Part shown: positions 1 to 21,925 of the stretch, piece by piece
Layout: the number at the start of each line of letters is the position of its first letter
Numbering within the stretch: the stretch's first letter is position 1
Assembly: GCA_963697435.1 (NCBI GenBank)
Contig: CAVOOB010000001.1
Location: 142,276 to 206,275, forward strand
Length of the DNA stretch: 64,000 bases
Direction of reading: 5' to 3'
Source: an uncultured Gemmatimonadales bacterium
GTDB lineage: Bacteria; Gemmatimonadota; Gemmatimonadetes; Gemmatimonadales; GWC2-71-9
Notes under the pieces: model-generated
What the model was told of the DNA's origin: nothing
Databases searched by the model: none
The model's input: the letters and a program-made list of their open reading frames with translations, nothing else
Translations under genes and position numbers: made by a program

Positions 1-103
1 ACTTCCAGATCACCGGGAGCGTAACGCCAAAGTCGTAGACGGCACCCGTCCCATCCACCAACGTCGCCGTCAGCGGTAGAAGTTCCCCGACCTCAATAGT
101 CAT
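1..103 (-). CDS. N-terminal fragment of a CDS continuing past the left edge; Ig-like (Big_2-type) surface protein fragment
   Basis: Hand translation from ATG at 103..101: MTIEVGELLPLTATLVDGTGAVYDFGVTLPVIWK. The strand pattern resembles bacterial Ig-like domains. Too short for certainty. Confidence 0.3.
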   Translation of the reverse strand, partial: MTIEVGELLPLTATLVDGTGAVYDFGVTLPVIWK

Positions 104-132
104 CGCCGGGGGATCAACCCGAAGCCGGAGGC

Positions 133-1169
133 TCAGGTTCGTCGGACACTGGTCGCTCGTCCGGCGAGCACGCCAGTTTCGGTGGGAGCACCGGGGCAGT
201 CGAGGAATTGAATCACCACGCTCGAGAATACCATGGTGCAGCCGCTCCCACCCACCGTGGCATTGCTGATCTCTTCATCGGCCGACCTCACAACCATGCG
301 CCCTGTGCGGCACGCGGAACCTTCAGGGAGTTTCACCTCAGTCCCCACGAATTGGGTGAAATGCTCCGCAGTGGCCTCCATTGTGGCCGTCGCGGGGTCG
401 TAGCGCATCTCGCCAGGGGAGGATACGGATGCCTCCGGGCCCAACCGTCGCCAGGAGCGGAATGCTACCCTCCAGCGCGGGCAGCCCAGTGATGCGGACG
501 GTGGCTGGCTTCAGGAAGTGTATGCCGTCAGGCGCACCGACGAAGCCAGTGATGACCTTGGCATCGTAGGAGCGGAAGGCGTTGAGTGTCGGCGCATCGG
601 TAGGCGCTGGCTGGCAGCGGCGTGAGCTGAATTTCCGTGGGCCCGGCCAAGGCTCCACTGGGGATGGCCAACTCCACGGTTCCGCCAGGCAAATGAACCA
701 CGCCGCCGTTCGCGTCCACAAGCTTGGCACCGCCTAGAATCGAGACCCGGAGCTTCGAGCCCGGTTTGCCCGTCAGCCGCACCGTGAGCGCGTTGCGTTC
801 CTGCAGTACGATCGCTTGATGGAGGTGGCGCGGCCCGGTCTCGGTTGCGGTCCGCAGCGCGGGAATCACTTGCCCGTTCACGGAAACCGACCCATCCGCG
901 CCTTGCGTCGCCAAGTCATCAATGTCGATGATGTAGTCCGCCGCGGGGTCGGCGGTGAACGTGGCCGACTCCACTCGGGGGGACGCGGTCGTGCGCACAT
1001 ACTCGGTCGGCCCAAACGCGTTCGCCGTGGGTACAGCGACGTTGGCCGCGACGAGGGACGGCTGCACCGCCGGTCCGCTTGGCAGCTCATTCTCCGGCGC
1101 GCAGGCCATCGCGATCAGGAGGGGGAGGAACGACACAACACGGAGAGAGGCGGACCGAGAGCGCGACAT
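133..1169 (-). pseudogene. Secreted lipoprotein with the reading frame broken twice
   Basis: ORF 528..1169 begins with a lipoprotein-type signal (MSRSRSASLRVVSFLPLLIAMAC). Protein-like sequence continues in ORF 338..730 (APTDAPTLNAFRSYDAKVITGF...) and then ORF 133..444. Frame changes lie near ~600 and ~440. Confidence 0.5.
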
Positions 1170-1394
1170 AAGACCCCCGCTGAGTGGCGGCTGTCAGGTC
1201 ACGAGACAGCAGTGCCAGGTGAACGCGGCCTGACCGATGCCTGAAGATGGGCCGACGAAGTCAGCGGGGAGTCATCAAGGAGTCACGTACCTTCGCCCGT
1301 TGCGCCGCCCAGCCCAATACTGCCCTCCGGCCGCCGGCCCGCAAGAGGCTCAATCAGGATGGAAACACTCCGGATTCTCGGGCTACAATTCCAA

Positions 1395-1540
1395 CTAGCC
1401 CCACTCCCGCCGATGCCGCCTCCACCAGGGCAAGAGAGGGCGCGGCTGGTACGTGAGAACCCCAAGCTCCTCGTAGAGCACCCGCAGCCGGCCCCGGAAG
1501 CACTGGGGCCACTCGTCCCACCCAGCCGTTTGACGGGCAT
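1395..1540 (-). repeat. Copy A of a 3-copy repeat family encoding a degenerate mini-ORF (WDEWPQCFRGRLRVLYEELGVLTYQPRPLLPWWRRHRREWG*)
   Basis: Shares the exact 18-mer gagcacccgcagccggcc (1476..1493) with copies at 3016..3033 and 3910..3927. The ATG at 1540 is out of frame with the conserved WDEW... reading, so this copy is degenerate. Confidence 0.7.
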
Positions 1541-1640
1541 CGAGATCTCCCTTCCAAAGTGTCAGTCCTTCTCGGGTGAGCCTATGTTTCAGGTGTAGGC
1601 CGCCCTCCCCTAAACGAGTGCACCTCAGGAGACGCTCCCC

Positions 1641-2971
1641 ATGAGGGAAGAAATCGCCGAGATTCTCTCTCCCCAGAAGCACTGGAAACGTGGAGCTACC
1701 CCGGAGTTGCGCGCTTCCTGGCCGACCCGATCCCGACTGCTTTCGGCCGCCGTCCGCCTCACCGCCTTGCTCCTGGCCGCCGCATGCAGTGAGAGCACGG
1801 CGCCATCGGCGGACCCGCCCGTGTTCTCTCAGCAGGGGTCCAAGCTGGTCGGCACCGGCGCCGTGGGGTCTGCGCTTATGGGCGGTGCTGTGTCCCTCTC
1901 CGCCGATGGCAATACCGCCCTCGTCGGAGGGTACTTCGACAATGCGGGTGCTGGGGCAGTGTGGGTCTGGACACGGAGCGGAGGTGTTTGGACGCAGCAG
2001 GGATCCAAGCTGGTCGGCACCGGCGCGGTGGGGGCTGCCAACCAGGGCCATTCCGTGTCGCTCTCCGCCGACGGCAACACCGCCATCGTCGGAGGGCCCG
2101 ATGACGATCAGGTGCCGGGGCCGTGTGGGTCTGGACACGAAGTGGAGGTGTTTGGACCCAGCAGGGATCCAAGCTGGTCGGCACCGGCGGCGTGGGGACT
2201 CCCCTTCAGGGCTATTCCGTGTCCCTCGCCGCCGACGGCAATACCGCCATGGTCGGAGGGTACTTCGACGATGGGGGCGGTGGGGCCGTGTGGGTCTGGA
2301 CACGGAGCGGAGGTGCTTGGACCCAGCAGGGATCCAAGCTGGTCGGCCCGGCACCGTCGGGGTCGCCGAGCAGGGTATTTCCGTGTCCCTCTCTGCCGAC
2401 GGCAACACGGCCTTGGTCGGCGGGCGTAAAGACAATGTGAATGTTGGGGCCGCGTGGGTCTGGACACGGAGCGGGGGCGTTTGGACGCAGCAGGGATCCA
2501 AGCTGGTCGGCACCGGCGCCGTGGGGACTGCCCTTCAGGGTTATTCCGTGTCCCTGTCCGCCGACGGCAACACCGCCCTGGTCGGAGGGTAGCTTCGACG
2601 ATCTGGCGGCTGGGGCCGTGTGGGTCTGGACGCGAAGCGGGGGCGTCTGGACCCAGCAGGGAACCAAGCTGGTCGGCTCCGGCGCCGTCGGGAACGCCTA
2701 CCAAGGCTATTCAGTGTCCCTCTCCGCCGATGGCAACACCGCCATGGTCGGAGGGTATCTAGACAATGTGGATGCTGGGGCCGCCTGGGTCTGGACACGG
2801 AGTGGGGGCGTTTGGACCCAGCAGGGATCCAAGCTGGTCGGCACCGGCGCCGCGGGGGCTGCCGAGCAGGGTATTTCCGTATCCCTCTCCGCCGACGGCA
2901 ACACCGCCATGGTCGGAGGGTATCTGGACAATGCGGGTGCTGGGGCGGTCTGGGTCTTCACATCACAATGA
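1641..2971 (+). pseudogene. Secreted FG-GAP/beta-propeller-like repeat protein (~7 x 54-aa repeats), three frameshifts
   Basis: Signal-like N-terminus (LTALLLAAACSES). Repeat unit: GAVWVWTRSGGVWTQQGSKLVGTGAVG..QG.SVSLSADGNTALVGGY.DN. The repeat reading hops between ORFs 1641..2429, 2123..2440, 1690..2592 and 2441..2971, with shifts at ~2110, ~2345 and ~2590. The last is a 1-nt insertion: gggtaGcttcgac versus gggtacttcgac in sister repeats. Confidence 0.65.
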
Positions 2972-2979
2972 CGGCGACC

Positions 2980-3075
2980 ACGCGGCTGATAGGTAACCTC
3001 GCTGTCGAGCTCATCGAGCACCCGCAGCCGGCCCCGGAAGAACTGGGGCCACTCGTCCCAAGTGAAAGGCTGCAT
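2980..3075 (-). repeat. Copy B of the mini-ORF repeat family (MQPFTWDEWPQFFRGRLRVLDELDSEVTYQPRG...), 3'-truncated
   Basis: ATG at 3075. The conserved core is at 3016..3033. Similarity to copy C stops about where the FG-GAP gene ends (2971). Confidence 0.7.
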
Positions 3076-3145
3076 GGCTCGAGGAGCGCTTCCGGTTGCA
3101 GCACAGATGGAAACCCTCAAGCGTCACACCAATGCATCCCGAGCG

Positions 3146-3718
3146 CTAGAGTGCCTTGAATACCTCATCGCACCGCTGTGTGACGACTTCAATCATTGAA
3201 TGAAGATCGGCGACTATCGGAACGCGTGATGCGACGTGTGGAACGGCGGGCCTGTGGCGAGGATCAAGAGTCAGATAGGCAGTCTTGCCGGTAGAGGAAA
3301 TCACAAAGTTGAAGGGATTGGCGTCGCGATGGACCACCTCATTCCGATAATTGACGACCCTGAACATGAGCCCGTCGTCTGAATAGGGGTCCGGGGGGAG
3401 CGGAGTTTTGTGTACCTTGATATTGAGTCCCTCCATCGCGGCTACTAGTGTGGCTGACGCGGTGCTTGCGCGAAGCTTGACGCAAACTCTCCCAATACTC
3501 ACATCGTCGTCCGCAATCCCAAGCGCTTGCTCGCTGTTGACCACTTGGGCCATGAAATCCATGGCGCCAGACAAGTGGAAGAAGAACTCCTGCACCGCCT
3601 GTTGGCGCCCATCGACATCTGATGGCATCGTACCAGCCCTGACGAGCCCGACCAGGTCTGCCAGTCGTCGCTCCGCGAACCGTAGCTTCTGGCGAACGGT
3701 GTCGTGAATGGCTGGCAT
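3146..3718 (-). CDS. Hypothetical protein with a HEPN-like Rx4H motif
   Basis: Intact 190-aa ORF in a visibly A/T-richer stretch. The motif is NYRNEVVHRD (R-x4-H), as in HEPN RNase domains. No other family recognised. Confidence 0.55.
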   Translation of the reverse strand: MPAIHDTVRQKLRFAERRLADLVGLVRAGTMPSDVDGRQQAVQEFFFHLSGAMDFMAQVVNSEQALGIADDDVSIGRVCVKLRASTASATLVAAMEGLNIKVHKTPLPPDPYSDDGLMFRVVNYRNEVVHRDANPFNFVISSTGKTAYLTLDPRHRPAVPHVASRVPIVADLHSMIEVVTQRCDEVFKAL

Positions 3719-3819
3719 GGGAAATCGCCTTGGGGGGGAGTTGCGAAAGGGCGGGCATCAGAACTAGGCCCACACTACGATCTCACTCTGGTCGTGTTAA
3801 GTCCAGCCATCGGACGCGC

Positions 3820-3969
3820 TCAACCCACAGGCCACCACCGCCGATGCCTCGGCCAGTACCACGGCAGCTTGGGCCTCGGCTGATAGACGACCTCGCCCCG
3901 TAGCTCGTAGAGCACCCGCAGCCGGCCACGGAAGAACTCCGGAAACTCGTCCCAAATGAATGGCGGCAT
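3820..3969 (-). CDS. Copy C of the repeat family: an intact 49-aa mini-ORF
   Basis: Hand translation: MPPFIWDEFPEFFRGRLRVLYELRGEVVYQPRPKLPWYWPRHRRWWPVG*, from ATG 3969..3967 to TGA 3822..3820. It is below the ORF-track length cutoff. It is conserved at the amino-acid level with copies A and B. Function unknown. Confidence 0.35.
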   Translation of the reverse strand: MPPFIWDEFPEFFRGRLRVLYELRGEVVYQPRPKLPWYWPRHRRWWPVG

Positions 3970-4040
3970 GGCCCGAGGATAGCCCCTCGTCGCCCTGCCG
4001 CCTGTACCATTTCAGCGCACAACCCCGCAATCCTACGCGC

Positions 4041-5033
4041 CTACTGGCTGCTGAGGTCCACCTCGACACGATTGTCGTCGACGAGGATGATAGACTGATT
4101 TACGAGCTCCTGGCTCGTGATGTCAAAGTCGGCGAAGCTCAAGATCGCCTTCAGCGGGAAATAGGCCATTACATGCTCGGTTGTTGCGTCTGTGTAGTAG
4201 GGAGCGGTCCCATGTCGAACGTCTTGTCGAAGCATGAGCCCTCCAATGGCATCGTGAGGCATCGCAATTTTGGCAAATAGCTTAAGCAACGCCAATTGTT
4301 CCTCAATCAGCGCTCCAATCCGCTTACTGCGCGTTACCTGCAAGTCATTCCACGTTGAGCCATAGAGAGGCAGCGATATCGTCATGTAGGTCAGGCCTTT
4401 GAAGTCCTCTGAGCCAAGGGTCGTTCCATTCGCCGTGATGTGGGCGAACTTCAGGAGCGCCGTTCGCTCGGCCGGGGAGAAAGTGGCGAGGGGCCCAACA
4501 AACGTCACTGAGTCGATAGCCGCATATGACAACTGCAATACAGAATCGGCGGCCGCCACTGGCGCGATCAATGCGCGAGCGACCTCGGGTTGCTCCACAG
4601 GCACGAAGATGCGGAAGTCTTGGGTGCCTGAAGTGTTCACGGTAATTTCCCACATCTTCTGCTTGGTGCCGATGCGCGTCACCTTGATAATCTTATGAAT
4701 GTCGTAGCGCCCAGATGGAGGGAACCCAGCAGAGCGCCAATCACTCCTCCAAGTACCGGTGGCCGAGTCTAACACTTCTATGACGCCACCGTTCGACCGC
4801 GCATCCAAGTCGTATTTGTATGTAGCGAAGATCCCGGTCGACAAGTGGACATTCATCAGCGCCGTCGGGACGGCGATCACCACACTATCACGTTTCGAGA
4901 ACCCGGTGTCCTCACTCTTTTGGGCCTGCACGCTTGAGAACACAGATATGCTCGCCACGAGAGCGATTATGGTGCAGCGCGCGGTGGGAGGTAGGAACAC
5001 AAAACGGAACATGATGAACCCCTTGTTGCCCAA
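4041..5033 (-). CDS. Secreted hypothetical protein
   Basis: Intact 330-aa ORF with an N-terminal signal peptide (FVFLPPTARCTIIALVASISVFSSVQAQ). A/T-rich relative to its surroundings: a hand count of line 4261-4320 gives 26/60 G+C. Confidence 0.6.
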   Translation of the reverse strand: MGNKGFIMFRFVFLPPTARCTIIALVASISVFSSVQAQKSEDTGFSKRDSVVIAVPTALMNVHLSTGIFATYKYDLDARSNGGVIEVLDSATGTWRSDWRSAGFPPSGRYDIHKIIKVTRIGTKQKMWEITVNTSGTQDFRIFVPVEQPEVARALIAPVAAADSVLQLSYAAIDSVTFVGPLATFSPAERTALLKFAHITANGTTLGSEDFKGLTYMTISLPLYGSTWNDLQVTRSKRIGALIEEQLALLKLFAKIAMPHDAIGGLMLRQDVRHGTAPYYTDATTEHVMAYFPLKAILSFADFDITSQELVNQSIILVDDNRVEVDLSSQ

Positions 5034-5228
5034 TTTTGCAGGACGCGTAATAGCCCTGCTATTCTACGCTTCGCCCTCCGCTCCCGGAAGACCCTGCACC
5101 TGAGCCTGGTCGCCCACGTGTCCAAGGGCGTGGCCCGGCTAACCTAGCCGTCGGCCATCCAGATTCACAATGTTTCTCCTGCTCCCAACCGGGCAATTCC
5201 ACCGATCCGTACTGCCCTAAGGTCGACT

Positions 5229-5318
5229 GAGGTCGAACATGAGATCGAATATGAGGTCGCCGTTGAGGGCACACCCCAACGTCCGTTGAAGGTGTCCGTT
5301 GAGGGTTTTGGCACACCC
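5229..5318. repeat. Subterminal direct repeats just downstream of the cas1 3' end
   Basis: Three tandem 12-mers: gaggtcgaacat, gagatcgaatat, gaggtcgccgtt (5229..5264). Two copies of ccgttgaggg(N0-5)gcacaccc (5260..5276 and 5296..5318). One ccgttgaagg (5283..5292). Confidence 0.6.
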
Positions 5319-5326
5319 TCAGGGGG

Positions 5327-6762
5327 CTACGCGACCCCCACTCCCGCCTCCCTGAGGGCCTCCCAGTGCCTGGCATGGGGGACCACCTCCCCTGACCGGA
5401 TCCGGCTGCAGGCGCTCTTGGTGAGCCCCGTCTGAGACGCTAGGTCGAGCCAGTTTGACCCCCTGGATTCCGGGAAGCACTATCCCGCCGATAGAACCCC
5501 ACGTCGGCTTCACCGGGGTGCTTCCGGTTCCACGCCCGATCCTCCCGCCAGACCTCGCGCATTGCACGCCGACGCTTCGCCCCGGCCTCAGGGCCCCGTT
5601 GGCGGCTGCGGTCCGGTACATCGCCCTTCGAGAACTCCCGTCCCACCGGACGCTGTCCCCTACGCGGTCGCCTGGAGACCCCGCGCCCACCCACGGGGCG
5701 TTCCGCAGAGCGCCTCCCGTCCTTCGTCATGAGCCCCAGAGAGGCCTTGTCGGGTCGGTCCGCCTCCAGAAGGGTCGCCGCGACCTCTTGGGCAATCGGC
5801 AGGACCAGGCGGGCCCACTGCTTCGTGGTGGTCGCCAGCTCGGTGGTCAGCGGTGGCAGCAACCGGCAGCCCCCATCGAGCCCCTCGAAGAAGGTGTCCT
5901 TCGTGAACTCCCGGGCGGTGAGGAGTTCGAGCAGGAAGGCGTCGACGGCTGGGCGCGCGGGCTCCATGAGGTCGAACACCAACGAGTCCCGATTCCGGGC
6001 GTCCCTGTGCATCAGCCCCAACATGGGGTCGGCTCCGACCGCCAGGGCCGCGATCCGGGCCTCGGCCTCCAGGAGGGCGTAGAGGTAGTTCAGCATGGCG
6101 TTGGCGGGGTTCACGGCCCGTCGCGGGGGACGTCGTGAGGGGGGACACCCGGGTCCCAAACGACCGCCAGTGGGCGGGTCGGCGCTTGGCGTCCGCCGTC
6201 GCAAACCGGACCTCGAGCGGCTGCCAGGCGCCCCAATAGGCCCTAGCGGCCACCGCCTCGAGGACCCGGAGCTCCTTGAGGCTCTTCGTCTCCCCGAGGC
6301 GCCCAAGCACCTCCACGAGCATCGGTTCGGCCTCAGCCCCACCGGGGAGCCGGGGGAGCAGCTGCCGTTGCCCCTCGACCTTTCGCCGGATGAGCTCCTC
6401 GGAGATCCGCCCCGCCAATCCCGTCTCCCCAGCGAGGGCCTGATTGCGCCGAAGCGCCGGGATGACAGCCCCGGTGGGAGCTGCGACGAAGAAGACCCGC
6501 CCATCGCTGTCGAGGTGGGTAAGCGGGACCCCGACGCCGTTGAGCCAGCGGATGGCGTCGAGAGAAATGGTGCCGGCATGTCCGAGGATCAGGATCCGCT
6601 TGAGCTCACGATCGAGCCGGCGAAGCGCAGGCCGTCGCGCTTGGCGGCGAGTCCATCCTCAACCACAAGGTGGCCACGCTCCACGGCGATGCGGAGGCCG
6701 TAGCCCTGCAGGACGAGAACGTCGCGTGCCGGTTTGGATCGGGTAGCAGGTGAGGTGCGCAT
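5327..6762 (-). pseudogene. cas1: Cas1-family integrase (casposase-like) with a C-terminal HTH; at least 4 frame disruptions
   Basis: Hand-joined frames, in order: MRTSPATRSKPARDVLVLQGYGLRIAVERGHLVVEDG...; RLDRELKRILILGHAGTISLDAIRWLNGVGVPLTHLDSDGRVFF...; SRRPPRRAVNPANAMLNYLYALLEAEARIAALAVGADPMLGLMHRDARNRDSLVFDLMEPARPAVDAF; and a tail ...ILPGIQGVKLA / LASQTGLTKSACSRIRSGEVVPHARHWEALREAG*. Shifts lie at ~6618, ~6135 (G6 run) and two within 5330-5480. Confidence 0.8.
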
Positions 6763-6780
6763 CAGGGTGCTCCTTCAGGT

Positions 6781-7869
6781 TCAACGGCAAGAGAACAGCA
6801 TGCAGGTTACGGCGACGCGGGAGCGGCAAGCCGTGGTGGTAGAGATGCAGTCGATAAACCATGACGAGAACGATTCGAACAGTTGTCCCTGCTCGCCATC
6901 AAAGAGGGTGAAGCCTCGAACGCTGGCCATGGTGTGCTGTCGAAAGGCATACCACACCAGGAACATGTGGGGTGGCGGTCCATCGAATGGCTCGAGGGTG
7001 GGATCGTGCGCGTTTTGCATCACCCACATCGCGATGAATTCCTCCCGCCACACCTCGAGGTCGGGGCTATGCTCTTCCGAGAGCGCGGAGCGGATGAGGC
7101 TGGCCCCAATGTCTTCGCTGAGTTCAGCGAGTTGATCTCGGAGTTTCTGTCGCCACTCCTCCATCTCATCTTCTCGCGCCTTTGCTGCCCGTCGAGTGTC
7201 CGGCGTGGAGCCTTTCTTGCCCTCGGTTGGCGACCGTCGGAGTTCTGTCAATGCGGCCTCGAGCCCGGTGGGGACGCCTCGCATGCCCACGATTGCGTGC
7301 TCGATCGCGTCGAGATGTTCTTCGGCAATTTCTTCCTTCTTGATCCCGTAGCCTGACAAGACTCGCACCACTAGCGCTAGCGCGGTATCAAACTCGCCTC
7401 GGCGCGCCCCGGTGAATCGATTTGGGCGGATGCCGAACGCTCGAAGCCCAGGTGCTGATGCAAGGCGTTTGAATTCGCCGATGCCAGTAACCCCCGGCTC
7501 GTCGCTCTCCATCCGTTGAAGCGCGGTATTGACCTCGTCCTCGAACCTCGCGGCGAGCTCCTGTAGGAACTGTCGAACGGCAGGAGTCACGGGGAAACCC
7601 GCCAACCACATCATCCACGCCACCCACTTGAGATCCCGCCGTCGCCCCCGGCTGAGGAGCGTGCTAACCGCCAGCACGTGGTCGAGCGCCTCGGGGGGAT
7701 AGCCTAGCGACGTCGTTCCCCGGCCTCGCCCGAGGCTCCTCCGCAGGGGTCGGGGCACGAGGCCGGCCTTGTGCCAGCGGACCACCTGATCCCCTCGAAT
7801 GGTGTGCCCCCGGACCCGAGCCAAATCGAGCAACTCCTTGAGCGGGAGGGGCTTGGCAGCTTGCAGCAT
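6781..7869 (-). CDS. Hypothetical protein (362 aa) immediately upstream of cas1; possible N-terminal HTH
   Basis: Intact ORF whose stop is 19 nt from the cas1 ATG, so probably co-transcribed. No family recognised. Confidence 0.6.
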   Translation of the reverse strand: MLQAAKPLPLKELLDLARVRGHTIRGDQVVRWHKAGLVPRPLRRSLGRGRGTTSLGYPPEALDHVLAVSTLLSRGRRRDLKWVAWMMWLAGFPVTPAVRQFLQELAARFEDEVNTALQRMESDEPGVTGIGEFKRLASAPGLRAFGIRPNRFTGARRGEFDTALALVVRVLSGYGIKKEEIAEEHLDAIEHAIVGMRGVPTGLEAALTELRRSPTEGKKGSTPDTRRAAKAREDEMEEWRQKLRDQLAELSEDIGASLIRSALSEEHSPDLEVWREEFIAMWVMQNAHDPTLEPFDGPPPHMFLVWYAFRQHTMASVRGFTLFDGEQGQLFESFSSWFIDCISTTTACRSRVAVTCMLFSCR

Positions 7870-8032
7870 GCATCAAATATACAACAGTACGCGAGAATGC
7901 GTAAGTGACTGCAGGTACGAGATCTAGGTTGCCTCTTCCAGTCGAGAATCCGCGTTCCGGCACCCCTGCCAGGACGGGCTCGATTGGCCGCCTGACCCGC
8001 TGGGACAGGCGACACTCATCAGTGGAGGCAGT

Positions 8033-8227
8033 ATGAAATACCTCACCCCCGCGGACGCCGCTCGACGGCTCGGCATCACCCCCGCGGCAGTCCGGGCGAT
8101 GGAGAAGCGCGGCACGCTCAAAGCCGTGGCCCGAACGGAAGGCAACGGACGACTCTTCAGCGCGGCTGACGTGGCGACCCTCGCGAGGAAGCGGGCCCGC
8201 AAGCCCAAGGGAGGGCGCCATGGCTAA
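8033..8227 (+). CDS. MerR/excisionase-type helix-turn-helix DNA-binding protein
   Basis: 64 aa: MKYLTPADAARRLGITPAAVRAMEKRGTLKAVARTEGNGRLFSAADV. A GGAGG RBS sits upstream. Divergent from the 6781..7869 gene. Confidence 0.7.
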   Translation: MKYLTPADAARRLGITPAAVRAMEKRGTLKAVARTEGNGRLFSAADVATLARKRARKPKGGRHG

Positions 8228-8738
8228 GCGTCGCAAGCCCAGTCGAAAGGCGAAGCGCCCAGCGGAGCGGTCGCCCACCAAAGGGCTCACCGCCCAGTCG
8301 GCGCAGGCCGAACGCCGGGCCCTCAAGGCACTGTCGCTGATGCGGAAGGGGTTGTCCCGCGCCAAGGCAGCGACCCGGGCCGGCACCACTCCACGGACGA
8401 TCCAGAAGTACGCGAAGCCGGCCATCCGGCGACGGGAGGGCACCTATGAGGCGCTCCCCGCCGATCAGATGCGGCGCCCCATGCGCTTCCTCACGGACCG
8501 AGGCGTGGTCGTGGTCGACGTTCGGAGCTCCCGTTCCGCGACCAGTCTCTCCCTGTACTGGGCGGCGGTCGACCACTACCTCCGCACCGGGGAGCGCGAT
8601 CGGCTGCAGCCCTACGAGGGCAAGCGACTCCGGGCCGGCGGTCATCTGTTCGCCTACATCACGGACCCCGACCTCCTCATTCGGCTCGCCGAAGCGGGCG
8701 AGGTCCTATTCGAAGACCTCTACGAAGCCACGGCCTGA
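8220..8738 (+). CDS. Hypothetical basic protein (172 aa)
   Basis: Intact ORF whose start overlaps the stop of the HTH gene (8220 vs 8227), consistent with translational coupling. Confidence 0.55.
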   Translation: MAKRRKPSRKAKRPAERSPTKGLTAQSAQAERRALKALSLMRKGLSRAKAATRAGTTPRTIQKYAKPAIRRREGTYEALPADQMRRPMRFLTDRGVVVVDVRSSRSATSLSLYWAAVDHYLRTGERDRLQPYEGKRLRAGGHLFAYITDPDLLIRLAEAGEVLFEDLYEATA

Positions 8739-8740
8739 CC

Positions 8741-9172
8741 GTGGAGAAAGGTGCATTGACCATGTCCTACGATCCTCAGCGGCGGCGGCGCGGGTCCACC
8801 GCCGCGGCAGCGCCTTGGGCCGGATGCTCGCTGCCTGACCTGCGGGATCGCCGACCCCACGGTGCTCATGACCCGTCGCGCGCGTTTTTCGAGCGGCACC
8901 ATGTGCTCGGCAAGGCCCACGCCCCGGACCTCACGGTCGCGGTGTGTCGGAATTGTCACGCCATTCTCTCGGCACATCAAAGCGACGACGCCGTCCCCCT
9001 CGAGCCGCAGCCCACGATGCTGGAGCGAATCGTCGCCATCCTCCAGGCACTGATCACGTTTTTCAAAGACCTCGCGGATTTCTTACTCGCCTTGGCGCTC
9101 TGCCTGGTCCAGTTCATCATCGGGCTCGACGCCCACGCTCCGACCTGGAGGAATCAACCATGGGCTCGCTAA
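8741..9172 (+). pseudogene. HNH endonuclease, 1-2 frameshifts
   Basis: Frame 0 reads ARCLTCGIADPTVLMTRRARF. The ORF 8741 frame reads FERHHVLGKAHAPDLTVAVCRNCHAILSAHQ. Together these give the Cys pair plus HH..N..CH HNH pattern. The shift is at the T5 run near 8886-8890. Confidence 0.65.
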
Positions 9173-12100
9173 AGCAGAGTGTTCTTCGGGTGGCCCTTCG
9201 GGCCTGGATTGCCCGGGTCGATCGACCGGTAAAGGCGCCGTACAAGCCGTCTGTGCTCCCGTGGCCGAAGCACGTGCTGGTGCTGGACACGGAAACGACC
9301 ACCGACGCTGTACAGCGCCTGTTGTTCGGGAGCTGGCGTCTCGGCATCTTCGGCGAGCATGGAGAGTTCGAGTGTCTGGAGGAGGGACTGATCCACGCCG
9401 ACGATCTCGCCACGCGGGATCCGGTCGGCTGGGCGCGGCTCCAGGAGTACTGACGAACGCATCGTCCTGCGACGCGGAATCTTCGGCGGGCGGAGCTTCT
9501 GCTCCTCTCCCGTCGGGAGTTCGTCAACGACCGACTCTGGAAGGCCCTCGATGGCGGCACGCTCATCGTCGGCTACAACTTGGCCTTCGATCTGACGCGG
9601 CTCGCCATCGGGGTGGGCGCGTCCCGGCATCCCATGTTCCAGGGCGGCTTCTCAGTGCCCCTCTTCGAGTACGAGGAGCAGGGCAAGTGGGTGGAGAACA
9701 AGCACCGGCCCCGCATCCGGATGAAGGCGATCGACAGCAAGCGGACGCTGATGGGGACCACCCGGCGCGTCGGCGCCCGACCTGAGGAGAAGCGCCAAGT
9801 CCTGGAGGGGCTGGGCCGGCTCCTCGACCTCAAGCATCTCACCTTCGCCCTGACCGACCGTCATCTCAGCCTGGCGAAGGCCGCCGAGACCTTCGGGCTG
9901 GAGGTCGGCAAGCTCGACGTCGAAGAACATGGCGTGATCACCGAGCACTACATCGACTACAATCGCCGCGACGTGGAGGTCACGTCGCTGCTCCTGGAAG
10001 CGGTGCGGGCCGAGTGGGTTCGCCATCCCGGTGGCCCTCTCGCCCGACAAGGTGATGTCGCCCGCCAGGTCTCGGAAAAGGCTATCTCCGGGCCATGGGG
10101 ATCGTCCCACCCGGGCGGAAGTTCAGCGACATCGGGGACACCGTGCACGGGCTCTGCATGACTGCCTACTTCGGCGGACGCACCGAGGTCCGCATTCGGC
10201 GCCAAGTCGTGCCGGTCATCTACGTCGACTTTCTCTCGATGTACCCCACGGTGAATGCCCTCATCGGGCTCTGGCGCATGCTCACCGCCGAGCGAATCAA
10301 GATCCAGGCCGCCACGGAGGAGGTGCGGAAGCTCCTGGCCGGGATCACTCTCGAGCGCTGCTTTCGAGAAGGCTTTCTGGGGAGATCTGCGGTTCTTTGC
10401 CAAGATCCGCCCGAACGGTGACATCCTCCCGGTGCGGGCGTCCTACGGCCCGACCGAGGACAACACCACCATCGGCGTCAATCCGTTCAGCAGCGCGATC
10501 CCGGTCTGGGTCGCGGGGCCGGATCTCGTCGCATCCGTGCTGCTGACCGGCAAGCAACCGGAGGTCCTCGAGGCGATTCGGATCGTACCGGTGGGCCAGC
10601 AGACCAGGCTCGACCCCGGTGGAACTCCGAAGCCAGGTCCATTGATCCGAGGAAAGAGGACTTCTTCCAGCGGGTGATCGAGGAGCGGCAGCGCGCAAAG
10701 ACTCGGCGACCCGACCTCAGCGAGGAAGAGCGTGATCGGCTTGAACGCTTTCTGAAGGTGATGGCCAACAGTGCCAGCTACGGCGTCTACGCGGAACTGA
10801 ACCCACAGCCCACGCGCACCGGAGCCCCCGAGGCGGTGGAAGTGTATGGCCTCGACGGCATGTTCCCGACCACCACCGCCGCCCCAGAGGACCCAGGGGA
10901 GTTCTGCTTCCCACCCTTCGCGGCCCTGACCACCGCGGGAGCGCGGCTCATGTTGGCCCTGTTGGAGTGCGGCGTTCGAGAACTCGGTGGAGAGATCGCC
11001 TTTGGTGACACAGACAGTGCAGCGATCGTGGCTACGGAGGGTGGTGGTCTCGTCCCATGTTCTGGTGGGGCGGACGTGCTCCCGGACGGTCAGGCCGCGG
11101 TGCGTGCCCTGAGCTGGGGGCAGGTGCAGGCACTCTCAGCAAGGTTCCGCGAGCTGAGCCCGTACAATCGCGACTACGTCCCTGGATCGATTCTCAAGAT
11201 TGAGGATGTGAACTTCGTCCCTGGGACCGAGACGTCACGTCAGCTCTTCGCCTTTGCCATCTCGGCCAAGCGTTATGCCCTGTTCGTCCGAGGGGTCGAC
11301 GGGGCCATTGAGGTCGAAAACGCGAAAGAACATGGGCTGGGGCATTTGCTCTGGCCCACACGGGGCACCCGAACCGAGGCAGAAGAGGTAGAAGATCGCA
11401 AGAAGGGCCGTCAGTGGATTCGGGATGTCTGGAAGGCACTGATCCGGGAGTCAGAAGGGGAGGAATTCCTCCTGCCCCAATGGGCAGACAGGCCGGCTCT
11501 TGCCCGGGTCACGGTAAGTACCGTCGGCATACTCCTCACCTTTGACAACCTGAACGATGAGAAGTCCTACGACGACTCTGTGAAGCCGATGAATTTCCTC
11601 CTGAGCCCCACGGTGGCCCGGTTCGGGCATCCAGCGGGAGCGAACCCCGAACGGTTCCACCTGCTCGGCAGCTACGAAACCGACCCAGATCGATGGCTGG
11701 ACATGACCTGGTACGAGAAGTACTCTGGCCAGACCTACCGGATTGGGGTCGGCCGGGAGACGCCTGGAGATCGGGTACAGGTGCGGTCCTACCGGGATGT
11801 CATCTTGGAGTACCGGGTCCACCCGGAAGCGAAGAGTCTCGACGCCAACGGCGAGCTCTGCGCCCAAGCGACCTGTGGACTCCTCCAGCGCCGCCCGGTG
11901 GAGCTCGGAGAATTGGTCTACGTCGGGAAGGAGTCCAACGCGCTGGAACAGGTCCAACAGGGGCTCATACATGCCACGGCGGATGTGCGGACCACCTACC
12001 AGGTCAGCGACAAGACGCTGTGGGACTTGGTGTTCCTCCCCGCCATCCGCCGGATTCCGCTCCAGCAGTTGGCCAAGGCCACGGGTCGCGGTATCCGATT

Positions 12101-12326
12101 GATTCGCTTCTGGCGGAAAGGGGAACGTCAACCGTCCCTGGAGATGCTGGCACTGCTGAAGCTGATCGCTGCCCGCTGGGCTGCGTGGGCGATGAAACAG
12201 CCGCGTATGTCCCCGGAGGATCGTGAAGTGGCCCTCCGCGTGCTGGCCGCGGCTCCAACGGCACCCCGCCGCGCAGCGAAGCCACCGGCGCACCCCAAGA
12301 AGGTTCGCCGCAAGTCCGCGAGGTAG
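9160..12326 (+). pseudogene. polB: Family B DNA polymerase (~1055 codons); N-terminal half broken, C-terminal 550 aa intact
   Basis: Motifs: ExoI VLVLDTETT, ExoII LIVGYNLAFDL, ExoIII YIDYNRRDVE, motif A YVDFLSMYPT, motif B KVMANSASYGVYAE, motif C AFGDTDSAAI. There is an in-frame TGA at 9451..9453. Frame changes lie near ~10028, ~10068, ~10360 and ~10620. ATG 9160 follows a GGAGGA RBS. Confidence 0.85.
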
Positions 12327-12346
12327 CACTGTTCAGACTCGAGGGG

Positions 12347-12374
12347 CTGCTCCCAGGCAGGCGCCTGGGAGCGG
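12347..12374 (+). terminator. GC-rich hairpin after polB
   Basis: ctcccaggc (12350..12358) pairs with gcctgggag (12363..12371), and the stem can be extended by 3 more pairs. No U-tract follows. Confidence 0.4.
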
Positions 12375-12520
12375 TTCTCGCTAAGCGTTCCGCGCCTCCT
12401 GACGGGGCCCGGACGGCCACTCATATTAACCCCTCGCGTGGTCCTATTGAGGTGAAGTCGACTTGATACTAGGGCCGCACGACAGATCAGGCAGGAGTCA
12501 GTGTCGACCGCTCTAGACTG

Positions 12521-17884: not shown

Positions 17885-18033
17885 GGTGAGACACTATCGT
17901 CAATCTCCCGTCAATGGCCTGTAGCGCAAGCCCAAGGAGGGATGGTAATCCCTTCAAATGCACTCGGAATTAGAGCGAGAGTGAACTCCGAGGCACCATC
18001 TATCTCTTATCCCTGGACACGTTTGAGAGTTGG

Positions 18034-19262: not shown

Positions 19263-21925
19263 TCAGGACTTGGGGTCGAGCGCCTGGCTCACCACCAGCG
19301 ACAGATGCTGGCGGTGGGCCCGCGTCTCGGCGTCGCCAGATGGCGTGGCGACCTGCGCCTGAATCTTCTTCAGGCTTGCCACGGCAGCCGACTTGGCTAC
19401 GTAGTCGTAGTTCTTGGCCGTCGGGCCCTTGATCATCCCGGCCACCTGGCTGACGTACTCCAACTGCAGGTTCTGCCGGAAGGTGTTGACGTTGCCGCGG
19501 GCATCAGCCGCAAAGACGGCGTCGGTCAGGTCCGACATCATCTGGGCGGATGAGTATTTGTTGCCGTAGAGCCGCGAGTCGGTCAACCGGGCCTGGGTCT
19601 GCGGGGCCAGCATGAACGACAAGACGGTCTTCTGCATGTTGAGCACGCGCGCGTGGATGTCCGGCTCGCCGGGACCGCTGAAGCCGCGCCGGGGCTGTTG
19701 CAACTCGGCCAGCAGCGTCGGAGGAGCGCTCCAGGCGTCCGGCGCGAAGAACTCTGTCCGGAGAATGCGCATTGCCCGCTGTTGCTCGGCAAGCGGCACG
19801 GGCGTGAACGGCAGGCCGGCGTCCGGCTGCCCGTCGACCCCGCGGCTCACGTACACGCCGCCGATATACCGCGACGTCACCACCGCGGCATTCGCCTTCT
19901 CACCTGTCGTGCGGAGATAGGCCACCCGCAGGGTCGCATAGTCCTGGCCGGGCTTCGGGTACCGCTGGTCGATCCCCTGAGCAGGGAGTCGGACAGCGCC
20001 ATCCGCCCTTCGACCCAGCGTGAGCGCATCGTTGCTGAGGTCGCCCACCATGACCCGCGGGTCGATGCCCCGGGCCGGGGACCGCATGTCGTCGGCATCG
20101 TTGCCGAAGGCGAGCTGCGGCTCCGTCGAGCGATTGAGCAGGGCGGTCATCCGCGCCGCCTCGGCGGCCGGATTCGGGAGCGAGGGGCGATACGCGAACT
20201 CGATGGCCCAGTCGTCGTAGGGCCCCGTCTGAATGTCAAAAGCCAGCGTCCGCTTGCCTCCCGGAGGCGGCACGTTGACGGCCGTGTAGTCCATGACCGA
20301 TCCCGTCACACCCCGGGTCGCCACCAGCGCGGAGTCCTGCAGCTGCGCGGGGGAGAGCATCTGGCTCGCCTTCATGTTGTGGTTGAGGCCCAGGGTGTGC
20401 CCCACCTCGTGGAGCACCAGGCTCACGACGGCGTCGTAGATGTACATATTCATCTCGACCTCGGTCGCGCCGAACATCTCCAGCGCCGAGGCGCCGAACG
20501 CGGCCTGCTGCTGCATGTAGGCCTGAGCGGTGCATGCGGTCGGGTCCGAATCATCGATGGGCATGCGTCAACGACCTGACCGGCGAACTCGAACAACTCC
20601 GACTGATGAATTCGATTCGTCACGAAGATGAACTCGAGCATGATGTCGGCGCCGAGGATCTGCCCGGTCCGCGGATTCACGAAGCTCGGTCCGTACCCAC
20701 CGAAGGGCGGATTGGGCGAGGCGGTCCACCGGAGCACATTGTAACGGAGGTCGCCGGCCTCCCAGGTGGCGGTGTCCGGCTGCTCCTTCACAACGATCGC
20801 GTTGGTGAATCCAGCCGTCTCGAAGGCCTTGTTCCAGCGGAGCGCTCCCTCGCGGATGGCGGGCCGCAACTCCGTCGGTGTCGTGTTCTCGATCCACCAG
20901 GTGATCGGTTCCACGGGATCGGACATGGCCGCGTCGGGGTTCTTCTTGACGAGGTTCCACCGGTGCACCTGGTCCTTCCACGGGGTGACACTCGTGGAGG
21001 TGAGATCGGTCACCTGGTCGGTGAAGTAGCCGACCCGGGGATCGTCGTACCGGACCTGGTAGTCGTTGTCGGGCATCTCGATGAAGGTGTGCTGAATCGT
21101 CAGGCTGACGTTGCGCGCGTCGGTGATTTCGGGTCCGCCGCTGTTGGTGGGCGCCGGGTTGACGTACACGTATTCCACGACGACGTCCGTGTTCAGCGGA
21201 TACGACTTGACCGACACGACGTGCGTCTTGTCCTTGTTGAGCGCGCCGAGGGTGAATGTCGTGCCGGGCGGAGTACCGGGCCGCGGGCTCGGCTTGACCT
21301 GACGGAGGGTTTCGGTGAGGAAGAGCTCATCGGCCTTGATCAGGAATTCGCCGGTGGCCGTATCGGTCGCGGCGATCTCGATCGACGCGAGCATCCCCGG
21401 GCTGATGTTGGCGTCGGCGGCCCGACTGAGCGGGCTCGCCGGATTGAAATAGAACCGGGTGTTCTGGGTGATGAACTCGATCTTGTTGAAGTTCTTCCGG
21501 ACCGCGAACACCGTGTTGGGGCCGAAGGCGCCGCGAAAGCTGCCTGCCGGGAGTGCCCCCTCGTCGGTCACCGACCAGTAGATGAACTCCTTGCCGATCT
21601 GGTCCTGCTTCACGACCATCTGGAGCGCGCCGGTCACGGTGTCCTGGTAGATGGTAAAGAGCCCCTCGAACTTCGTCGAGCTCTTCGTGAGTTCCGCGAT
21701 GCTCTTCGTGGCTGCGGGTTTGTCGCCTCCGGACTTGGCCTTGCCCTGGGCGTTCGCCGGGCTCGGGGAAGTGCCTGCGCCCGGGCCGGACGCGCAGGCC
21801 AGCGCGACCACACTCAGGGACGTGAGAGCGACTCGGACGATTCCTCGACCTGGCATGAACAGCTCCGGTACGGGTGTGAACGGAGGGGCGATCTTCGGGA
21901 ACGGCATCGGGAGGGGAACCTGCAC
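19263..21925 (-). pseudogene. Zinc-dependent metalloprotease (DUF5117/DUF4953-type, HExxH), one frameshift
   Basis: The N-terminal ORF 20450..21925 (lipoprotein-like signal) and C-terminal ORF 19263..20564 (HEVGHTLGLNHNMKAS) overlap. The join is ...SELFEFAGQVVDA / PIDDSDPTAC... near ~20565. Confidence 0.75.

Follow-up and report, generated by a model that had tools for sequence, protein, structure and literature searches.

The window analysed here, a 64,000-nt stretch of a contig from an uncultured Gemmatimonadales bacterium, contains at positions 5327-12326 a divergent cas1/polB module, delimited from an open reading frame (ORF) map and three-frame translations (Table 1). A gene for a Cas1 homologue and an accessory ORF are read from one strand; a small helix-turn-helix (HTH) gene, a gene for 172 aa, an HNH-type nuclease gene and a gene for a family B DNA polymerase (PolB) are read from the other. 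The preliminary description of this DNA, made from the sequence alone, had drawn the same layout, and both the ORFs and their homologues bear it out. We interpret the module, with a probability of about 0.85, as the core of a casposon of family 3 whose host is a soil-type bacterium of high G+C content: a resident copy that was recently inactivated, and not a remnant of a CRISPR system. The casposon call is made because of the Cas1 domain, the motifs and fold of the polymerase, the linkage of the two genes, the terminal inverted repeats (TIRs) and target-site duplications (TSDs) of related loci, and the grouping of Cas1 with family 3. Casposons, rare transposons that insert by means of a Cas1 protein and encode a DNA polymerase of their own, are proposed ancestors of the CRISPR adaptation machinery.

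Table 1. Features of the casposon-like element and its insertion site in the 64-kb window.
Feature	Position	Strand	Remarks
Left-arm cargo ORF, 190 aa	3146..3718	-	no Pfam match
Small conserved ORF MPPFIWDEFPEFFRGRLRVLYE...WYWPRHRR	3823..3969	-	direct repeats; marks the left arm
Left-arm cargo ORF, 330 aa	4041..5033	-	G+C 0.56 (host ca. 0.66); no Pfam match
cas1 (casposase) pseudogene	5327..6762	-	Cas1 domain and C-terminal HTH tail; 4 single-base frameshifts
Accessory ORF, 362 aa, intact	6781..7869	-	19 nt upstream of cas1; no Pfam match
MerR/excisionase-type HTH gene, 64 aa (65 codons with stop), intact	8033..8227	+	first gene of the divergent polB operon
Core gene, 172 aa, intact	8220..8738	+	weak Pfam HTH_3 match
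HNH-type nuclease gene, 137-143 aa	8762..9172 (open from GTG 8741)	+	homologues begin MSYDP
Family B DNA polymerase pseudogene, ca. 1055 codons	9160..12326	+	TGA and 5 frameshifts; 10674-12326 open
Cargo gene, 211 aa	12521..13156	-	weak DUF2971 match; between polB and right TIR
Cargo RES-domain gene (toxin-type), 233 aa	13227..13928	-	Pfam RES E=7e-19
Cargo gene, secreted-type protein, 1268 aa	14078..17884	-	Pfam RCC1, WD40_RLD, Invasin_D3/Big_1
Right TIR, 33 nt	17981..18013	-	read inward GGGATAAGAGATAGATGGTGCCTCGGAGTTCAC; matches the family TIR motif
Target-site sequence TGGACACGTTTGAG	18014..18027	+	right copy of the expected 14-bp duplication

Stitched across its frameshifts, the Cas1 product has 341 aa and matches the Pfam profile Cas_Cas1 with E=2.3e-38 over profile positions 1-271 of 283. 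It contains the motif NPANAMLNYLYALLEAEARIAALAVGADPMLGLMHRDARNRDSLVFDLMEPARP, and its C-terminal tail ...LTKSACSRIRSGEVVPHARHWEAL aligns with the C-termini of intact relatives, so that both features claimed for it beforehand are present. The protein is 88-94% identical to the intact Cas1 of a related locus (L089) over most of the alignment and 67% identical over the first ca. 40 residues; at the DNA level, the gene is about 80% identical to cas1 of locus L091, in an alignment that lists the indels.

The polymerase, stitched to 1041 aa, carries all six motifs that had been attributed to it: Exo I (LVLDTETT), Exo II (GYNLAFDL), Exo III (YIDYNRRD), and Pol motifs A (YVDFLSMYP), B (KVMANSASYG), and C (FGDTDS). 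The profile search advised at the outset gave uneven results for the two enzymes: strong for Cas1, as said above, and for the polymerase only a faint match to DNA_pol_B_2 (PF03175), with no sequence match in the PDB. Because these searches were nearly blank, we modelled the structure of P0001, the closest intact homologue, which is 83% identical to the window polymerase (the N-terminus of the latter is 90% identical to an intact homologue). The AlphaFold2 model (predicted local distance difference test score, pLDDT, 77.8; predicted template modelling score, pTM, 0.75) retrieved with Foldseek only family B polymerases among the 50 PDB matches listed, each with a probability of 1.00, among them Pol alpha, phi29, Pol II, Pol zeta, and archaeal PolB; P0001 is thus predicted to have a family B fold. 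On the question whether PolB is of the family 2/3 casposon type or of the protein-primed type found in family 1, the structural matches mix Pol alpha, phi29, and Pol II. Motif C across the polymerase family follows (C/G)DTDS and mostly reads CDTDS, the motif for which the PolB_CDTDS cluster of Kazlauskas et al. was named; that cluster includes the polymerase of the Aciduliprofundum boonei casposon (PMC7544198). The N-terminal extension of another homologue, P0133, found nothing in the window by tblastn, and is probably a spurious upstream ORF.

The small genes between the two enzymes are also recognisable in relatives. The first HTH protein shows 55% identity (tblastn) to the HTH protein of locus L001, and its homologues have weak Pfam matches to HTH_17/MerR. 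A homologue of the 172-aa gene lies 5' of polB in most related loci (tblastn), and the p176 protein of L086 is 73% identical to it. Pfam gives no call for the HNH gene; its signature, E-x-HH...VCRNCH, emerges from the alignment with homologues, in which E-x-HH and V-x-x-C-x-N-C-H are invariant. The window copy is without the first CxxC zinc knuckle, with the reading frame still open. The 362-aa ORF does stand directly upstream of cas1, as had been noted, and it is a variable accessory kept just in near relatives: it shares 45% identity over 326 aa with the equivalent gene of L006, several other loci match its N-terminus only, and in relatives the slot is filled by an HTH-type protein (HTH_3/HTH_31 in L004).

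Polymerase homologues of about 1000-1100 aa number at least 1375 in public data, where nearly all are unannotated. Scanning GTDB with one genome for each species yielded 472 loci, mainly from Acidobacteriota, Gemmatimonadota, Eremiobacterota/Vulcanimicrobiota, Chloroflexota (Thermomicrobia), and Actinomycetota; among the cultured hosts are Tunturiibacter psychrotolerans, T. lichenicola, and Tsukamurella soli. Our comparisons of loci cover the best 80 of these 472, of which 63 have at least 6 kb of sequence upstream of polB; in all but one of the 63, a divergent cas1 lies 1.65-5.4 kb upstream of polB. Their termini were found by a search for inverted repeats in the flanks, and then by a motif derived from those repeats. 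The TIRs are about 30-37 nt long, begin with GGGATAGGAGATAG... (consensus start GGG(A/T)TA(G/A)(G/T)AG(A/T)(T/C)A), and usually contain ...AAAACTGC/AGTTCAC.... Pairs of TIRs with matching 14-bp TSDs are present in 27 loci (24 from the genome scan, L001, and L004/L005); the duplications are perfect in 26 of them and carry one mismatch in L001, and the elements so bounded measure 10.9-17.8 kb. Some genomes have two copies (L030/L034, L031/L073, L071/L074). These relatives are real transposons with the hallmarks of casposons, in agreement with the earlier suggestion that the window holds a casposon or the relic of one. Two of the loci have inverted repeats inside the element: in L019 (6451-6582/12948-13079; 132 bp, 94%) they tightly bracket the cas1-polB core, and in L031 (3204-3448/12641-12885; 245 bp, 98%) one arm overlaps the 3' end of polB. 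This suggests internal rearrangement or nested ends.

The family was assigned from Cas1, the references being families 1-3 and some CRISPR Cas1 proteins in a published alignment (PMC4046053, Additional file 2). In phmmer searches, the window protein scored 235 bits against AceAut-C1, 186 against Saccharopolyspora spinosa (SacSpi), 155 against StrAlb-C1, 140 against HenMar-C1, and 124 against NitAL212-C1, all of family 3; family 2 gave at most 97 bits. In a distance-based neighbour-joining (NJ) tree, with limited sampling of CRISPR Cas1 and unresolved deep branches, the window protein, 16 relatives, and family 3 formed a clade in 166 of 200 bootstraps; a narrower clade with AceAut, SacSpi, and StrAlb appeared in 176 of 200, AceAut being nested among the window group. 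Judged by this comparison with known casposases, which the preliminary description had recommended, the window element belongs to the known family 3 of bacterial casposons, and its Cas1 is closest to that of AceAut-C1. The host genes of the window (gyrB, ligA, hyp, ccm) are bacterial. The published TIRs of MetLum (GGGGTAGTAGTTATCGG), MetFor (GGGTAATAGTTATCC...), and StrAlb (...GGGGGAGTAGAGAGAG...) resemble the termini of our family, as does that of NitAL212 (GGGGTATG...), an element with a 14-bp duplication.

A CRISPR-Cas adaptation module that survives as a remnant and by chance adjoins an unrelated polymerase gene would also bring a cas1 to this place. Homologues are annotated in their source as 'CRISPR-associated endonuclease Cas1', and the best sequence match in the PDB is a CRISPR Cas1 (4n06, E=3e-23), slightly ahead of the Methanosarcina mazei casposase (6opm, E=1e-20). 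The surroundings tell otherwise: the whole 64 kb is free of CRISPR-like arrays; cas1 has HTH, HNH, and PolB genes for neighbours, and no Cas2 family was matched among the neighbouring ORFs scanned, the window as a whole not having been scanned for cas2. Of the absences reported before, that of the array is thereby upheld for the entire window and that of cas2 for the scanned neighbours. With the constant linkage of cas1 to polB, the grouping of the protein with family 3 casposases, and elements bounded by TIRs and TSDs, we regard such a remnant as improbable in the extreme.

The family 3 casposon to which we assign the module extends well beyond it. The compact layout of about 7.3 kb proposed originally describes only the core: the element reaches from 1401 or further left to 18013, at least 16.6 kb, and carries cargo on both sides. 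A generic search for inverted repeats around the core found no TIR, and the right terminus was located only once the family motif had been derived from relatives; this motif occurs once in the window (17981-18013), in an architecture, GGGWTAAGAGAYAG...AGTTCAC, that is shared with the TIRs of L088, L089, L090, and L001, the closest relative in the Gemmatimonadetes. The support for this end is comparative and does not come from the motif hit by itself. The 14-mer that follows the TIR is found in identical form beside a casposon TIR in L088 (ca. 1000), and in near-identical form in L089 (ca. 9980) and L090 (ca. 280); three independent related metagenome assemblies (L088; L089, with L091/L092 as the same locus; L090) have a casposon TIR at the same position. 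In addition, contig L093 (88-130) is homologous to the window from exactly position 18014 onwards, and what precedes this homology in the contig is not a TIR; L093 looks like an unoccupied version of the insertion site. Because of the junctions in L088-L090 and the break in homology of L093 at 18013|18014, we place the right end at 18013. The insertion is intergenic, with the target site about 6 nt upstream of the start (ca. 18034) of a host gene whose homologues encode 183 aa. The casposons of the window and of L088-L090 all lie upstream of this gene and differ in their cargo and polB lineages, which leaves two accounts of the shared site: an old inherited insertion with replacement of modules, or repeated site-specific insertion. 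Compared with L089, which occupies the same site and has so similar a Cas1, the window PolB is only about 50% identical, whereas its identity to P0001, encoded on another contig, is 83-90%. Going by these identities, the elements are mosaic for cas1 and polB.

On the left, the expected TIR (GGGATAAGAGATAG..., plus strand) was not found in 1-5300 by blastn-short, by a TIR profile run in nhmmer, or by pattern searching with as many as 3 mismatches. The left end probably lies beyond the start of the window or was lost; in the syntenic relatives L089 and L091/L092, the contigs end within the RHS cargo gene, before the left end is reached. The TIR and TSD search proposed earlier thus found both ends in 27 related loci and the right TIR alone in the window. 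We extend the left arm to at least 1401 because copies of the small conserved ORF reach that far and because the G+C content is low at about 3-5 kb. This ORF has 49 codons (MPPFxWDEWPQFFRGRLRVLYE..YQPR..WYWPRHRR), and its DNA unit of about 80-140 nt is present three times in the left arm, with partial copies at 2980-3075 and 1401-1520 (minus strand). In L091 (ca. 11890-12040), a 49-aa ORF with 73% identity to it follows cas1 at a distance of about 450 nt and precedes a 1618-aa RHS/YD-repeat gene; such ORFs may mark cargo cassettes.

Inactivation is the second part of our reading. In cas1, changes of frame in tblastn and the DNA alignment place four single-base indels near 6621, 6124, 5491, and 5448; in polB, position 9451 has TGA where intact homologues have Val, and +1 frameshifts follow near 10030, 10067, 10370, 10617, and 10645. 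These ten lesions fall within the 4.6 kb of cas1 and polB, and the remaining ORFs of the core and the cargo stay open. The words 'largely decayed', used of the element before, accordingly fit the two enzyme genes and not the rest, and even there part of the damage may be assembly error.

Several observations weigh against a recently inactivated family 3 casposon. The tree behind the family assignment is one of Cas1. A single terminus is visible, and the full extent of the window copy is unproven; the TIR seed motif by itself lacks significance, 1.2 hits being expected in 64 kb; and no second copy of TGGACACGTTTGAG occurs in the window, leaving the 14-bp duplication of this copy unproven. The remaining points concern the lesions. 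The five polB shifts share one direction, +1. The damaged genes retain 83-94% identity to intact homologues (88-94% for the cas1 product, 90% for the N-terminus of PolB), which fits very recent decay or consensus error. A host gene for a Met-zincin (DUF5117/DUF4953; 19263-21925, minus strand), has one uninterrupted reading frame of 864 aa in L089 and L090; the window version is divided by two 1-nt insertions into two overlapping ORFs with a break near 20560-20572 and is either a host pseudogene or a sign of assembly indel errors. A repeat gene at 1641-2971 (plus strand; ...SVSLSADGNTALVGG...GAVWVWTRSGGVWTQQGSKLVGTGAVG...), which we read as a candidate FG-GAP-like beta-propeller, runs through three frames and is likewise broken several times.

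Together with the open state of the small core genes and of every cargo gene, these last points would suit an intact, potentially active family 3 casposon whose lesions are errors of assembly or consensus, from long reads or from mixed strain variants. We hold this to be rather unlikely. The assembly is not error-ridden overall, because ten large host genes at 19-60 kb (gyrB, ligA, hypF, NiFe hydrogenase, ccmF, and others) match their Pfam domains, most of them over the full profile, while ten lesions are crowded into 4.6 kb; the highly repetitive cargo gene of 3.8 kb stays open; the indels are mostly outside long homopolymers; one lesion is a stop codon of the substitution type; and the first CxxC of the HNH protein was lost through changes that preserve the frame. 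Genuine and recent inactivation of the window copy is the likelier explanation, and we consider it reasonably probable. Inactivated casposon copies with stop codons in polB were reported in Methanosarcina (PMC4779613).

The broken enzymes also bear on whether the Cas1-PolB module might be a domesticated, immobile host system, such as an island for defence or repair. The module is strongly conserved across phyla, and often sits among defence-type genes (GmrSD, MmeI-like restriction-modification, DUF4365, patatin, RHS). These genes, however, lie within TIR-bounded elements and so are cargo; the TIR pairs and matching duplications of the 27 loci are at unrelated genomic sites; the paired copies within single genomes and the contig without the element at the window site (L093) point to mobility; and with both enzymes of the window broken, no function is maintained. 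Domestication is accordingly very improbable.

For the family 3 casposon that we favour, the gene set, the termini, the 14-bp duplications of relatives, and the re-use of the site are observed; the course of transposition we infer by analogy with the characterised casposases of archaeal families 1 and 2 (PMC4046053, PMC5137440, PMC6977970, PMC8464041). The Cas1-family casposase would bind the conserved termini, aided by its C-terminal HTH and probably by the small HTH and HNH proteins, which may assist in the recognition of ends or target. It would then join the 3' ends of the TIRs to target positions with a 14-bp stagger; repair of the gaps would yield the 14-bp duplication, and the family B polymerase encoded by the element would copy it. 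In the window, such an event would have placed the element just upstream of the 183-aa host gene. As assembled, this copy is unable to move by itself or to supply either enzyme, because cas1 and polB are broken and the zinc knuckle of the HNH protein is lost; at best, it could be mobilised in trans.

The choice of target shows a pattern in the relatives. Of 26 distinct sites, 15 have a duplication with TTGAC as its end (L001, L011, L014, L015, L017-L019, L022, L023, L028, L033, L036, L040, L043, L044), and for 13 of them a TAnnnT hexamer stands 16-18 nt further downstream, compared to 2.8% of 2847 background TTGAC sites. By its sequence, the TTGAC-N16-18-TAnnnT target is a sigma-70 promoter-like arrangement. 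It faces a tRNA gene in L028 and L023; in L070, the duplication ends in TTGAG and a tRNA gene adjoins the insertion. Sites of the Gemmatimonadota type deviate from the promoter-like pattern, including that of the window, which ends in TTTGAG and has no -10-like box.

Three groups of known elements invite comparison. The described family 3 casposons (AceAut-C1, StrAlb-C1, NitAL212-C1, HenMar-C1, and the S. spinosa element; Krupovic et al. 2014, 2016) have the same solo Cas1 casposase, the same set of PolB, HNH, and HTH genes, bacterial hosts, intergenic insertion, a TIR start of GGG..TA.., and a variable cargo of nucleases, toxins, and RES-type genes; the 14-bp TSD of the relatives studied here matches that of NitAL212-C1. 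Our clade differs in its size (472 loci, against about 8 described bacterial casposons), in its hosts (Gemmatimonadota, Acidobacteriota, Eremiobacterota, Chloroflexota, and Actinomycetota), and in the many members that target a sigma-70 promoter-like sequence; the window copy differs by its broken cas1 and polB and its one visible terminus. Family 2, experimentally characterised in A. boonei and M. mazei, is alike in its casposase with C-terminal HTH, its HNH gene, two HTH genes, and PolB with motif C (C/G)DTDS, in its terminal sequences (GGGGTAGTAGTTATC / GGGTAATAGTTATCC) and TSDs of 14-15 bp, and in the reported inactivated copies with stop codons in polB. It differs in the lower Cas1 scores (at most 97 bits vs 124-235 for family 3), in its archaeal (Euryarchaeota) hosts, and in its targets, which are the 3' ends of tRNA genes or intergenic sites and not a promoter-like motif. 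Pipolins and other integrative elements that carry PolB resemble the element in being of the self-replicating type, with a divergent family B polymerase and defence cargo, but have tyrosine recombinases and direct att repeats and no Cas1. We rejected a pipolin reading: no recombinase family is listed in the gene tables examined, and TIRs with a 14-bp TSD form the ends.

Casposons had been described as poorly documented in hosts of this kind, and the literature agrees. A census of 2016 listed about 8 bacterial casposons (PMC4779613), none from Gemmatimonadota or Acidobacteriota; a study of 2023 worked with 54 casposases altogether and refers to a survey that is unpublished. The literature searched describes about 54 casposons, of which only a handful are from bacteria. 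In the literature searched, casposons are nowhere mentioned together with Acidobacteriota, and, two actinomycete elements aside, we found no published casposon from the host phyla of the clade. Taken alone, the window copy is one more broken family 3 element of the ordinary kind, and the main interest lies in the clade: family 3 is common in soil bacteria, an abundance that is unreported. The members show well-defined termini, a 14-bp duplication, and a sequence-specific, often promoter-like choice of target, and they present casposons as carriers of defence and toxin genes. At somewhat less than even odds, we tentatively propose a large undescribed bacterial clade (at least 472 loci, mostly from soil Acidobacteriota, Gemmatimonadota, Eremiobacterota, Chloroflexota, and Actinomycetota) whose casposase would recognise the sigma-70 promoter-like TTGAC-N16-18-TAnnnT, with a 14-bp duplication ending on the -35 box; whose elements would ferry defence and toxin cargo (GmrSD, RES, patatin, RHS); and whose cas1/polB modules would be exchanged by recombination at shared sites. 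Apparently intact, two-ended copies are available in cultured Tunturiibacter psychrotolerans and T. lichenicola, where bacterial casposition is testable.

Related casposons carry many cargo genes of defence and toxin types, MmeI-like restriction-modification included: L001 (628-6352) has GmrSD, DUF4365, and DUF3825; L004 (3093-6145, 13018-14481) has HNH_5 and DUF4062; and L089 (6845-9816) and L091 (12231-17087) have patatin and an RHS/YD toxin. The cargo proteins of the window have no tblastn match in any other locus. Between polB and the right TIR, the window element holds 5.7 kb of cargo with a RES-domain gene, a type of cargo that has also been reported for archaeal casposons (PMC4779613). 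Beside the right TIR, the 1268-aa protein is made up of seven near-identical tandem Ig-like repeats (ca. 97 aa), followed by Invasin_D3/Big_1 and then by an RCC1 beta-propeller, an unusual cargo for a transposon.

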